IMG/VR virus record: IMGVR_UViG_2734482537_000011
Length of the DNA: 4,528 nucleotides
Strand: one strand, 5' to 3'
Origin: a virus
Lineage: Duplodnaviria; Heunggongvirae; Uroviricota; Caudoviricetes
Shown: one piece after another, positions 1,470 to 4,528 of the stretch
How the letters are laid out: each line of letters begins with the position of its first letter
Position numbering within the stretch: the stretch's first letter is position 1
Notes under the pieces: generated by a model
What the model saw: the letters and a program-made list of their open reading frames with translations, nothing else
Databases searched by the model: none
Told to the model about the DNA's origin: nothing
Made by a program: the position numbers and the translations under genes

Positions 1470-1485
1470 AGTTTCAGGAGGATTT

Positions 1486-1908
1486 ATGGCGAAACCTTTT
1501 ACTCCCGAACAGCGGGAAGAACTGAAGACGCGAATTGTGGAACTCGTGCATCAGGACGGTCGGGTCACGATTCGGCAGTTGTCAGATGAAACAGGTATCA
1601 GTCGTGCGTCTGTCGGTCGCTTATGCATAGAACTGGTCGCAAGTGGTGATGTATATAATTCTGGCTACGGCTTATTCCCGTCTGAACAGGCTCGCAAGGA
1701 CTGGCAAAGCGCCCGCAAAAAACTCTCGAGAGTAAAGGTGAGGAAACCGGTTGTTGTTGATCCGGACCTTATCTGGTCATTACCTGACGGAGAAATACGC
1801 CGCTACGACAGGCGCCTGAATATAATCTGTCGCGAGTGCCGGAAGAGCGAAGCTATGCAGCGTGTACTGGCTTTCTATCAGGGTAATTTTCAGGAGGCGA
1901 TACTGTGA
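1486..1908 (+). CDS. ren: Ren-like winged-helix protein (lambda Ren / Rex-exclusion-resistance family), 140 aa
   Basis: ATG 1486 with AGGAGG at 1476-1481. It sits immediately downstream of the helicase-loader gene, as ren sits after P in lambda. The C-terminus ..NIICRECRKSEAMQRVLAFYQG resembles the lambda Ren C-terminus as I recall it (..NLVFKECRQSAAMKRVLAVYGV), and the N-terminal TIRQLSDETGISRASVGRLCIELVASG looks like a winged HTH. Similarity is from memory and needs an alignment. Confidence 0.5.
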   Translation: MAKPFTPEQREELKTRIVELVHQDGRVTIRQLSDETGISRASVGRLCIELVASGDVYNSGYGLFPSEQARKDWQSARKKLSRVKVRKPVVVDPDLIWSLPDGEIRRYDRRLNIICRECRKSEAMQRVLAFYQGNFQEAIL

Positions 1909-1965
1909 ATGAAATTAGCTATCAGGCTTCAATTACCGCTGGCATTCGCATCAAAGGAGAGGAGC

Positions 1966-2322
1966 ATGGAAATAAAACCAGAAGATGAGTTAAGCAATAT
2001 CGTTTTATTTCCGGTAAAAGAGGATGACCCTCGTAATCAGGTTAATTTTCTTTATGAGCCATCGGAAAGACCATATTGCCATCACGCCTCTGTACGGGTT
2101 GACGAAAAAGAGCGTCAGGTCCGCTGTAAAATCTGCGGTGCGGTTGTGGAGCCGTTTGACTGGATGCTCTCTGTGGCAAAAAGAGAAACCAGACTGGCAG
2201 ATGATGTAAGGCTATTGCGCCAGGAGGAACAGGAAAGGCGGAGAAATATAGAAAAGCTGATACAGATTGAGCGTAACGCGAAAGCGCGGATACGCAGGGC
2301 GACAAAATCCAGAACTGAATAA
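1966..2322 (+). CDS. Hypothetical protein with a zinc-ribbon-like motif and a C-terminal charged coiled-coil-like segment (118 aa from ATG 1966; 137 aa if ATG 1909)
   Basis: Open frame 1909-2322. ATG 1966 has AAGGAG at 1954-1959 with a 6-nt spacer; ATG 1909 abuts the upstream stop and has no SD. Contains YCHHASVRVDEKERQVRCKICGAV (C-H-H ... C-x-x-C) followed by the basic/acidic stretch LLRQEEQERRRNIEKLIQIERNAKARIRR. No family recognised. Confidence 0.5.
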   Translation: MEIKPEDELSNIVLFPVKEDDPRNQVNFLYEPSERPYCHHASVRVDEKERQVRCKICGAVVEPFDWMLSVAKRETRLADDVRLLRQEEQERRRNIEKLIQIERNAKARIRRATKSRTE

Positions 2323-2469
2323 TTAAATTTAGCACTGTTAAAAATTTAATCCTTAACCGGAGGGATTTCTGCACCCTCAAATCATCAGGAGACCACCCGA
2401 AAGGGCGGGGAGCAGTCACACATCTGTTTCCGATAGCCCCGTTCTAATGCTACACTCTTTGATATTTTT

Positions 2470-3156
2470 ATGACCCCAATAAACATATTTATGACAGTTG
2501 CTGATTTCAAACGGCCCAAATTGGAGCTCCCAAACGGGGCAAACAAACTACTACTGCACTCTTGCTGTGCTCCATGTTCCGGTGAGGTGATGGAGGCGCT
2601 TCAGGCCTCGGGAATCGACTACACCATCTTTTTCTACAACCCGAACATTCATCCTCAGAAAGAGTATTTAATTCGTAAGGATGAGAATATTCGCTTTGCT
2701 GAACAACACGGCGTGCCGTTTATTGATGCTGATTACGACACAGACAACTGGTTTGAACGAGCCAAAGGAATGGAATGGGAGCCCGAACGAGGGATCCGTT
2801 GCACCATGTGTTTTGACATGCGTTTTGAGCGGACAGCGCTGTACGCCGCTGAAAATGGTTTCAGTGTGATCAGCAGTTCACTGGGCATTTCACGCTGGAA
2901 AAATATGCAGCAGGTTAACGACTGTGGGCGGCGAGCCGTCGCGCATTATCCGGGCATGGTGTACTGGGATTATAACTGGCGCAAGCAGGGCGGCTCGTCC
3001 CGTATGATTGAAATCAGCAAGCGCGAAAAATTCTATCAGCAGGAATATTGTGGCTGTGTGTATTCTCTGCGCGATACCAATCTACACCGCAAATCTCAGG
3101 GACGCCCTCTTATCAAAATTGGTCAACTCCACTACGGTAAAGAAGAGAAGGAGTGA
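2470..3156 (+). CDS. queH: Epoxyqueuosine reductase QueH homologue (DUF208); alternative start at ATG 2491
   Basis: N-terminal [11 protein letters not shown] is the hallmark cysteine motif of DUF208/QueH; further Cys pairs at RCTMC and YCGC fit Fe-S cluster ligands. Neither ATG 2470 nor 2491 has an obvious Shine-Dalgarno, so the start is uncertain. Confidence 0.8.
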
Positions 3157-3175
3157 TTTTATGGGGCACCTTTCT

Positions 3176-3205
3176 GATTGATTTCATATTGGCGAGGTAA
3201 GTAGA
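3176..3205 (+). promoter_or_regulatory. Candidate sigma70 promoter of the hok/mok mRNA (-35 TTGATT, 18-bp spacer, -10 TAGAAT)
   Basis: TTGATT at 3176-3181 and TAGAAT at 3200-3205. The predicted start near 3212 precedes GCGGGTGCTTGAGGCTATCTGC, which resembles the 5' end of plasmid R1 hok mRNA as recalled (GGCGCUUGAGGCUUUCUGCC). Confidence 0.35.
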
Positions 3206-3269
3206 ATGACTGCGGGTGCTTGAGGCTATCTGCTTCAGGCATGAACACCAAAAGGCAGATAGAGAAAAG

Positions 3270-3335
3270 CCCCAGTTAACATTACGCGTCCGGCAAGACG
3301 CTTAACATTAATCTGAGGCCAATTTCATGCTTTGC
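3270..3335 (-). ncRNA. sok: Sok-like antisense RNA (coordinates approximate; promoter on the - strand at about 3342-3370)
   Basis: On the minus strand: -35 TTGCCT (+ strand 3365-3370), 17-bp spacer, -10 TAACCT (+ strand 3342-3347), placed as in R1 hok/sok where the Sok promoter lies inside the mok start region. The element TAAGAGGCTA (+ strand TAGCCTCTTA, 3346-3355) appears conserved with R1 as recalled. The 3' end was not identified. Confidence 0.35.
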
Positions 3336-3539
3336 ACATGTAGGTTAGCCTCTTACATGCCGAAAGGCAAGGAGAAGCAGGCTATGAAGCAGCAAAAGGC
3401 GATGTTAATCGCCCTGATCGTCATCTGTTTAACCGTCATAGTGACGGCACTGGTAACGAGGAAAGACCTCTGTGAGGTACGAATCCGAACCGGCCAGACG
3501 GAGGTCGCTGTCTTCGTAGACTACGAATCCAGGAAGTAA
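3327..3539 (+). CDS. mok: Mok-like reading frame (N-terminally extended, in frame with hok), 70 aa
   Basis: ATG 3327 in frame with hok gives MLCTCRLASYMPKGKEKQA-MKQQK.., parallel to E. coli MokC (MLNTCR...KEKRA-MKQHK..) as recalled. Confidence 0.5.
   Translation: MLCTCRLASYMPKGKEKQAMKQQKAMLIALIVICLTVIVTALVTRKDLCEVRIRTGQTEVAVFVDYESRK
3384..3539 (+). CDS. hok: Hok/Gef family type I toxin, 51 aa
   Basis: MKQQKAMLIALIVICLTVIVTALVTRKDLCEVRIRTGQTEVAVFVDYESRK is near-identical over most of its length to E. coli HokD/HokC as recalled, including the transmembrane segment and conserved Cys. AGGAG at 3370-3374 lies 9 nt upstream of ATG 3384. Confidence 0.88.
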   Translation: MKQQKAMLIALIVICLTVIVTALVTRKDLCEVRIRTGQTEVAVFVDYESRK

Positions 3540-3788: not shown

Positions 3789-4076
3789 ATGAAAATCGAA
3801 GAATTGCGTGAAATTTTTAGTGAAAATGGCCTCTATGCTGTGCGCGTTGAGAATGGAGCGATTGTCAGCCATTGCCGCATTAGATGTTTGCAATCTCAAC
3901 AAAGGAAGAGCGGTGCTGTGTTATTTTATTTTTGTAATGGACTTCTGACGGACGGTTTTATTTTGCGTGAGGACGAATTTGTCACATCATTACGGGTTTT
4001 GAAAGAGATTGGTTTTAAGGCTGGTTTTCTGCTTTTGCTGAAGAATAAACTCATCTACAATCTTGAGCAGGATTGA
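3789..4076 (+). CDS. Hypothetical protein, 95 aa, AT-rich orphan gene
   Basis: ATG 3789 with GGAAGGA at 3776-3782. Intact ORF with no recognisable motif. Composition is visibly more AT-rich than the flanking genes, with several T-runs. Confidence 0.45.
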   Translation: MKIEELREIFSENGLYAVRVENGAIVSHCRIRCLQSQQRKSGAVLFYFCNGLLTDGFILREDEFVTSLRVLKEIGFKAGFLLLLKNKLIYNLEQD

Positions 4077-4114: not shown

Positions 4115-4468
4115 ATGGCACATATACAACTGGTCAAACAAACCTCTTCCGGATTACTTCTCCCGGCGACGCCGGAGAGTTGCGATTTTCTGCATCAAAT
4201 CAAAATAGGTGAGTGGATACACGCAGACTTTAAGCGTGTGTGTAACTACGCATTCCACAAGCGTTTTTTCAAACTCCTGCAACTGGGTTTCGATTACTGG
4301 ACTCCGGTCGGTGGGGCGATCACGCCTCGCGAACGAAAACTGGTGTCCGGTTTCGTTGATTACCTGTGTGAATCAGTAGGCCGGGAACATACGCCAGCTC
4401 TGAGCGAAGCCGCAGAGCAATTGAGGTGTACTGGCAATAGCGGACACTACCATTTGTTCTTTTTTTAA
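4115..4468 (+). CDS. DUF1367-like lambdoid nin-region protein (start ATG 4115, not the TTG at 4073); possibly truncated or frameshifted at its 3' end
   Basis: GGAG at 4104-4107 lies 7 nt upstream of ATG 4115 (MAHIQLVKQTSSGLLLPATPE..). The segment FHKRFFKLLQLGFDYWTPVGGAITPRERKL matches my recollection of the conserved core of DUF1367 phage proteins. The ORF ends at a T7 tract while frame 1 stays open to the window end. Confidence 0.5.
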   Translation: MAHIQLVKQTSSGLLLPATPESCDFLHQIKIGEWIHADFKRVCNYAFHKRFFKLLQLGFDYWTPVGGAITPRERKLVSGFVDYLCESVGREHTPALSEAAEQLRCTGNSGHYHLFFF

Positions 4469-4528
4469 GCAGCCATCTGATGATATTTTTCCCTGAAGGC
4501 TGCCGGGGAGATATTCCCCAGACGAGAG

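Follow-up and report, generated by a model that had tools for sequence, protein, structure and literature searches.

Lambda Orf73 and F-plasmid TraR (DksA/TraR) are small, zinc-binding and largely helical proteins that stand among the lambdoid early accessory genes, and they illustrate how a small protein that binds RNA polymerase reprograms the host (PMC9239242). The hallmarks of TraR are a C4 site (CxxC-x17-CxxC) and two helices, the N-terminal one tipped with DxxDxA and the C-terminal one carrying ExxRK (PMC8614690). Lambda Ea8.5 is a homeodomain/zinc-finger hybrid (homologues PDB 2M7A and 2M7B), with a slot just downstream of ea22 in lambda. Here we compare these and other described systems with the product of an open reading frame (ORF) at positions 1909-2322 on the plus strand of a 4,528-nucleotide stretch of caudoviral DNA (IMG/VR record IMGVR_UViG_2734482537_000011; this whole stretch is referred to below as the window). 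The setting is the early-right region of a Rac/lambdoid-type prophage of Escherichia coli or Shigella. By its profile matches the product of this gene (the target protein) is a member of a large catalogued phage family without described function. Its predicted architecture - an acidic low-complexity N-terminus, a CHCC zinc ribbon and a 55-residue amphipathic helix with a basic end - differs from that of every characterised small zinc-binding phage protein.

Compared with TraR, the target protein has its CHCC ribbon first and the 55-residue helix with the basic end second; the ribbon reads CxH...CxxC with a 13-residue spacer, and there is neither a DxxDxA motif nor a PF01258 match at E<=1. In 933W a TraR-like gene, L0141, stands two genes ahead of L0139, the paralogue of the target gene. 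Ea8.5 likewise has a Cys/His...CxxC ligand set, and its string CRHHEGVYVDEG is locally similar to CHHASVRVDEK of the target protein, but its conserved His is at C-x2-H, its CxxC is some 55 residues away and its helical fold is without a coiled coil. Kinship with Ea8.5, suggested by this string and by the slot after ea22, was rejected: hhalign gives a probability of 2.2% over 16 columns, His position and spacing differ, and the family profile has no PDB match.

The zinc ribbons of TFIIB and S27e (PF08271 and PF01667) are also two-hairpin ribbons of similar size. These two were the sole sub-threshold Pfam matches, with nothing above threshold: PF08271 (Zn_Ribbon_TF) reached 21.1-21.5 bits, short of its 29-bit gathering threshold, and was matched by 17 of 119 diverse relatives at E<=0.01. 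S27e was the best PDB sequence match of the single protein (E=0.55), and a 49-sequence profile matched nothing there. Foldseek returned a best E of 0.15 in BFVD and, in the PDB, the TFIIB N-terminal ribbon (1pft) at E=0.57, below significance. Those ribbons have C4 ligands as against CHCC here and no counterpart of the long zipper helix, and the target protein is without the cyclin fold of TFIIB or the ribosomal context of S27e.

A further likeness is to bZIP proteins, in which a leucine zipper adjoins a short basic segment; here that segment has invariant Asn and Arg, and it is this likeness that led us to the 'works like' proposal set out below. The polarity is reversed in the target protein, however, with the basic segment C-terminal to the zipper; there is a zinc ribbon at the N-terminus, and the hydrophobic seam runs on through the basic segment. 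No bZIP Pfam model matched the window protein at E<=1, and none was among the 25 most frequent families matched by the 119 relatives (E<=0.01), so on these profiles the target protein is not a bZIP member.

The initial annotation could place the protein in no nin-region family, and this holds more widely, since searches of Pfam, NCBIfam, PADLOC (a defence-system library) and PDB sequences and three fold searches were all negative. No match was found to NinB, NinE, NinF, NinG/Rap, NinH, Roi or Lar-type restriction alleviation proteins (Pfam E<=1, NCBIfam E<=0.1). A literature search on WP_001343130, phrog_1621, 933W L0139 and the combination of zinc ribbon, coiled coil and anti-defence returned nothing on the family, and a review of exo-xis modelling does not treat the protein.

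Gene boundaries, family and predicted architecture

The ORF at 1909-2322 (+) is real: it contains YCHHASVRVDEKERQVRCKICGAV (nucleotides (nt) 2074-2145), followed by a charged helix. The first reading of this DNA had wavered between ATG 1909, which abuts the upstream stop, and ATG 1966, with its strong ribosome-binding site; that ambiguity was genuine, and it resolves to ATG 1966. The true coding sequence is 1966..2322 (+), which encodes 118 amino acids (aa) followed by a TAA stop (WP_001343130.1 type; phrog_1621). PGAP places the start of WP_001343130.1 at ATG 1966, and the phrog_1621 profile match begins at residue 20 of the long-form ORF. Every aligned orthologue, from over 10 genera (among them Escherichia, Klebsiella, Kluyvera, Yokenella, Salmonella, Erwinia, Serratia, Pluralibacter and Yersinia), begins at the Met matching 1966, and ATG or GTG stands at the equivalent position in 85 of 88 near-identical loci. 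A Shine-Dalgarno sequence, AAGGAG (1954..1959, +), lies 6 nt before ATG 1966 within a conserved linker, GCTGGCATTCGCATCAAAGGAGAGGAGC, and the same 22-26 nt precede the gene in loci where its upstream neighbour is Ea22-like. The 57 nt of 1909-1965 are a junction relic and not conserved coding sequence.

Across 38 distinct close alleles the ratio of nonsynonymous to synonymous polymorphism (pN/pS) is 0.046; the target gene is thus real and under strong purifying selection. An antisense ORF at 2042-2419 (-) was considered as a real gene and ruled out by plus-strand conservation and by pN/pS. The DUF977 gene upstream and the 1909 ORF share one frame (1486-2322), with a TGA alone between them, and four database clusters (P0279, P0280, P0283 and P0284) hold 278-aa fusions of DUF977 with the target protein that read …L-G/R-V-K-L-A-I-R… where the stop and ATG 1909 would stand. 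These are probably sporadic stop-loss variants, and we rejected them as Rosetta-stone evidence since simple stop-codon loss suffices to join an in-frame neighbour.

The match to phrog_1621 (E=5.1e-56, 189 bits) covers residues 1-117 of 118 (20-136 of the long ORF) and profile positions 1-120 of 134. All 119 diverse relatives match phrog_1621, 118 match phrog_8538 and 114 match phrog_4865; the three families, all labelled 'unknown function', include 933W L0139 and ArgO145 gp17, and L0139 aligns to the family profile with an hhalign probability of 99.3%. Besides 148 close homologues of the target protein, 1,614 clusters (50% identity) were retrieved at E<=1e-3, 259 of them at E<=1e-10, when a profile was run against 1.84 billion representative proteins. 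The diversity of the family is mostly metagenomic. The gene is carried by 1,679 of 5,426 complete E. coli genomes (31%), in up to five copies per genome and always annotated 'hypothetical protein'. The proteomes of members range from 6% to 47% A+G+R+P. In genomes, distant members that keep the motif were verified in a Solirubrobacterales (Actinomycetota) metagenome-assembled genome (MAG) and in Panacagrimonas, besides Enterobacterales. A degenerate DNA pattern scanned over one genome per species, with an upstream CxH...CxxC required for verification, gave 35 hits of which 12 were true; chance hits were estimated at about 17.

Two database entries call for comment. A 3-kb contig (L126) in a MAG labelled 'Collinsella sp.' holds an E. 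coli-type copy (P0009-like) with the same upstream LAFASKES linker, and almost certainly comes from an Enterobacterales prophage whose contig was binned by mistake with an actinobacterial MAG. The 'RusA' names in the 90%-identity cluster of a Serratia relative (P0130) are a clustering artefact: the cluster mixes 146-aa family members with unrelated true RusA proteins of 127 aa (PF05866), and could mislead automated naming.

To define the anatomy of the protein, per-column statistics were computed from family alignments of 25, 49 and 119 sequences, the last of which (alignment A3, mean column identity 14%) is our ZnR-zipper family definition. Residues 1-35 form an acidic tail (net charge -5) predicted by AlphaFold2 with a predicted local distance difference test score (pLDDT) of 67-86. 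Within it the alignments pick out a short motif, E-D-E-L-S-N-I-V-L-F-P (1981..2013, +), which in the family takes the form of an acidic run and then [DN]-[VI]-[IV]-x-[FL].

The CHCC zinc ribbon follows at residues 36-62 (2071..2151, +), as judged from invariant columns and the predicted fold. Its predicted ligands are C38 (2077-2079), H40 (2083-2085), C54 (2125-2127) and C57 (2134-2136), all on the plus strand, in the pattern C-x-H-x13-C-x2-C-G that is present in the window protein. C38, C54 and C57 are invariant in the 119 sequences, and position 40 is His in 111 and Cys in the remaining 8. The 'C-H-H ... C-x-x-C' motif of the initial annotation therefore survives in its second half, while its first His (H39) is variable and the ligands are C-x-H; H39 excepted, conservation of the Cys/His ligands among homologues was confirmed. 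From the invariant ligands and the predicted fold we infer that the protein binds one zinc ion via this ribbon. Other conserved ribbon residues are V43, V45, D46, E47, R50 and G58.

A junction of the form E/D-P-F-D (2149..2160, +) caps the long helix. The family consensus is [LVI]-D-P-F-D-x-L...A71, to which V-E-P-F-D corresponds in the window, and the columns are well kept (D62 in 90 of 119 sequences, P63 in 82, F64 in 94 and D65 in 84). Beyond it residues 63-117 (2152..2316, +) are predicted as a single 55-residue amphipathic helix with an unbroken 3-4 heptad, the spacing running without a break over residues 67-112. In a heptad count, L, I, V, M, F, W and Y make up 60% of residues at a and d positions as against 9-25% at the others, and Leu occupies d84 in 66%, d91 in 55% and d98 in 93% of sequences; such Leu-dominated d positions predict a coiled-coil oligomerisation element. 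AlphaFold2 models built on the 49- and 119-sequence alignments (pLDDT 73.8 and 90.3) agree in topology, both having two short hairpins (43-46 and 51-54) and one helix at 63-117, which has a pLDDT of about 94-99 with the deep alignment. Ligand conservation, the modelled ribbon and helix and the heptad count thus bear out the earlier description of a zinc-ribbon plus coiled-coil protein, and the modelled helix agrees with its charged helical tail.

The last two heptads hold the most conserved block of the protein, a basic motif L98-I-Q-I-E102-R103-N104-A-K106-A-R108-I-R110-R111-A112 (2257..2301, +), whose near-invariant family form is L-K-R-x-E-R-N-x-K-A-R-[IL]-R-R-A. L98 is kept in 111, E102 in 101 and N104 in 106 of 119 sequences, R108 in 108 of 118, and position 106 is basic in 117 of 118 (K in 95, R in 22). 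Family members have K or R at positions 99, 100, 103, 106, 108, 110 and 111. Segment 98-118 of the target protein has a net charge of +5, and the C-terminal half is positive in 97% of members. We propose this conserved motif as the candidate functional surface.

A one-gene cassette and its Ea22-like neighbour

Among 88 near-identical loci, the window included, the upstream gene is DUF977 in 44 and Ea22-like in about 33. In 32 loci, among them those Ea22-context examples that were inspected, homology to the window breaks off 22-26 nt before the ATG. In 47 loci (the window and 46 others) at least 61 nt of upstream flank, relic included, are common to all. On the downstream side, homology ends either 15-16 or 81-86 nt past the stop in most loci without queH. 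The gene thus stands in at least six upstream and at least three downstream contexts, and because the boundaries of homology flank it closely on both sides, the mobile unit is the gene itself, a one-gene cassette. The commonest downstream neighbour in E. coli prophages, in 44 of 86 scorable loci, is a small HNH endonuclease gene (PF01844, E=3e-6) some 225 nt away (for example at L008 4580-5035); 14 loci have QueH in that place, and the rest have other genes. In relatives from other genera the neighbours differ, and distant relatives stand in runs of small unannotated early genes, among which no conserved partner gene was found.

What recurs beside the gene is not queH but an Ea22-like gene that lies upstream and overlaps it. 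An Ea22-like gene confirmed by Pfam (PF13935, Ead_Ea22) lies directly upstream of, and overlaps, the family gene in three divergent members: ArgO145 gp17 (99% identical to the target protein, 23-nt overlap), Tyrion gp50 (33% identical, 11-nt overlap) and 933W L0139 (27% identical, TGATG overlap with the Ea22-like L0140). In Escherichia-type lambdoid phages the cassette is ancestrally located just downstream of, and overlapping, an Ea22-like gene. Rare in-frame Ea22::target fusions, with a junction AELEAR|EIKPEDE common to different Ea22 N-termini but present in none of the 88 fetched loci, lend weak support to this link.

The window itself has a trace of the same arrangement. Bases 1905..1961 (+), read in the +1 frame with respect to the target gene, hold 19 codons, VNEISYQASITAGIRIKGE, that read V-N-E-I-S-Y-Q-A-S-I-T-A-G-I-R-I-K-G-E, that is, Ea22 N-terminal codons joined to a C-terminal '...AGIRIKGE'. 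Lambda Ea22 starts VSEINSQAL and ends SDAGIRIKGE, and the Ea22-like ArgO145 gp18 ends ...LAGIRIKGE, encoded by the very nucleotides found before the target ATG. Judged by this likeness, bases 1905-1961 are a collapsed ea22-like gene, which explains the spurious open frame from ATG 1909; the last codons of the relic double as the ribosome-binding linker of the target gene. The relic marks the gene as a cassette transplanted from the exo-xis/ea22 region to the nin-side region beside DUF977.

Candidate functions

The function that we favour, and regard as plausible rather than probable, is that of an oligomer formed through a coiled coil, which would use its basic helix end and its ribbon to contact nucleic acid, or a conserved nucleic-acid machine, in the early phase of infection. 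The gene itself is an early-operon accessory gene of a lambdoid prophage. The long helix would form a coiled-coil oligomer, most simply a parallel dimer, and so assemble the invariant basic helix ends (E-R-N-x-K-A-R-I-R-R) and possibly the zinc ribbons too; the resulting basic surface would bind nucleic acid or a nucleic-acid-handling machine conserved across bacteria. The product would then be a small regulator or modulator of host physiology, early in infection or induction, with its functional neighbourhood among the exo-xis/ea22 genes that tilt the choice between lysis and lysogeny; it would be no enzyme and would not cooperate with QueH. Zinc ribbons often contact nucleic acids, and because of this and of the basic charge we take nucleic acid, or a machine that handles it, as the simplest partner. 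We infer a partner conserved across phyla because of the breadth of the family, with 1,614 clusters, members from very AT-rich to very GC-rich proteomes and the motif kept in the genome-verified ones. That distant phages carry the gene in an early setting without a conserved partner is also in favour. As to the neighbourhood, two studies describe an influence of Ea22 and other exo-xis genes on lysogeny versus lysis (PMC7093339, PMC10834534).

Several observations weigh against such a role. No DNA- or RNA-binding Pfam model (bZIP, helix-turn-helix or other) was matched. The hydrophobic seam crosses the basic motif, in contrast to the free basic arms of bZIP proteins. Structure prediction covered the monomer, so that the oligomeric state and orientation proposed here are putative; coiled-coil-driven fold matches carry no information. 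Phages of Klebsiella, Serratia, Hafnia and Providencia and distant metagenomic relatives are without an Ea22 neighbour, and the Ea22 association may reflect shared position and not shared function.

The zipper and basic tip might instead inhibit or redirect a conserved host protein with no nucleic-acid contact, candidate targets being RNA polymerase, a component of the replisome or one of the coiled-coil proteins of the divisome. Orf73/TraR (PMC9239242) is the precedent for a small zinc-binding early lambdoid protein acting in this way, in that case on RNA polymerase. That the motif is invariant over distant hosts suits a conserved protein target, and there is weak coiled-coil similarity to FtsL, DivIC and ZapB. 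We consider a host-protein binder of this kind possible, if on the unlikely side.

Unlikely, too, and with less to recommend it, is an anti-defence role, in which this small early cassette product would neutralise a bacterial immune system. An arms-race anti-defence gene would normally have a narrow range and evolve fast; the very wide spread of the family, the near-invariance of its functional residues across phyla and the low pN/pS (0.046) are thus somewhat against a narrow anti-defence function. In its favour are the accessory early regions (nin and exo-xis) in which the gene is found, its behaviour as a single-gene cassette among at least six upstream and at least three downstream contexts, and the up to five copies per genome. 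Enki, a 52-aa zinc-ribbon protein that inhibits AbiH and a retron (bioRxiv 10.1101/2024.06.14.598830), is a precedent, but no sign of kinship to Enki was found. No defence system recurs nearby, and the absence of a PADLOC match is no real test since PADLOC covers defence systems.

The Ea22-like neighbour raises the further question of whether the target protein serves Ea22-like proteins as an obligate partner or as another version of their C-terminal module, forming a hetero-oligomer and having no independent activity. Overlapping, translationally coupled Ea22-like and family genes in three divergent lineages, and fusions with an identical junction behind different Ea22 N-termini, would be consistent with this, and Ea22 itself has a tetrameric coiled-coil core (PMC8614690). 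However, in the window and 46 other loci ea22 is reduced to the relic of about 19 codons and the target gene is still intact and constrained, many relatives have no Ea22 neighbour and the fusion is in none of the 88 fetched loci, which leaves obligate partnership improbable.

A functional partnership with the epoxyqueuosine reductase QueH, for example as zinc/iron-sulfur chaperone or as regulator of tRNA queuosine, had been raised in the initial annotation from the adjacency of the two genes in the window, and no promoter-like or terminator-like site was detected between DUF977, the target gene and queH; but it is hardly credible and effectively refuted by distribution, just 2 of 5,426 complete E. 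coli genomes having the order DUF977-gene-queH as against 1,679 with the gene, thousands of DUF977-queH loci being without it, most copies of the gene being without queH (next in 14 of 86 scorable loci) and shared downstream homology stopping 15-86 nt past the stop codon, before queH.

A bolder version of oligomeric nucleic-acid binding can be entertained, as a long shot: the family could be an unrecognised pan-bacterial class of 'zipper-then-basic' zinc-ribbon proteins, dimeric coiled coils that hold nucleic acid in a basic fork at their C-terminal end and in lambdoid phages work with Ea22. If true, the class would be a reversed-polarity analogue of bZIP and, with translationally coupled Ea22, would set the lysis-lysogeny balance, and hence toxin release, in Shiga-toxin and other lambdoid phages; the paralogue L0139 lies in the exo-xis/ea22 region of 933W and other Shiga-toxin phages, a region that influences lysogeny versus induction. 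Whichever reading applies, the gene is present in about one third of complete E. coli genomes, often in multiple copies, and for more than 1,600 clusters at 50% identity we found no Pfam model, solved structure or literature. The sharp conservation signature points to a specific surface to mutate. Knowledge of its target would close a gap that recurs in the maps of lambdoid phages, clarify the role of Ea22-type genes and could reveal a new nucleic-acid-binding or host-binding module. The annotation is meanwhile improved, in that the start codon is corrected, the queH link dropped and the ea22 relic recognised.

The prophage around the gene

The genes of the window come in the order O-like replication gene, DnaC/YdaV-like gene, DUF977 gene, target gene, queH, sok/hokD, a phrog_340 ORF and a DUF1367 gene, and over 1480-3200 the window is 99.8% identical to E. 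coli FDAARGOS_944. The DnaC/YdaV-like gene runs from 789 onward and is mostly masked by a 250-base N-run (1220-1469), across which ORF listings are artefactual. The DUF977 gene, also called 'Ren-like', lies directly before the target ORF at 1486-1908 (PF06163, E=1e-33; phrog_142). After the target gene, a spacer of 147 nt to the long queH ORF, or 168 nt to the PGAP queH start, leads to the QueH gene (PF02677, E=2e-65); structured RNA in the 147-nt spacer was not significant (z=-1.18). Between hokD and DUF1367, an ORF at 3789-4076 (95 aa) matches phrog_340 ('unknown function', E=6e-20) and has no Pfam or NCBIfam match; it is a further conserved but uncharacterised prophage gene.

Two of these genes are damaged. 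The O-like gene (80-782), an intact 262-aa gene in FDAARGOS_944, is a pseudogene here: relative to that genome it has a 2-nt insertion in a poly-A run at 311-318 (A8 versus A6) and a 10-nt deletion near 449, and its first 100 nt or so are divergent. The DUF1367 gene (about 4425-4528), intact at 600 nt in FDAARGOS_944, is cut off past residue 103 or so by the terminal part of IS600, an element of the IS3 family. The interrupted DUF1367 gene and the broken O gene show a prophage in decay; the target ORF is nonetheless intact. The window also carries a complete hok/sok-type module at 3214-3539, made up of sok (3214-3389; Rfam RF01794, 117 bits), hokD (3384-3539; PF01848, E=4e-23) and an overlapping mok-like ORF from 3327, and in 933W the paralogue L0139 is likewise directly followed by sokW/mokW/hokW.

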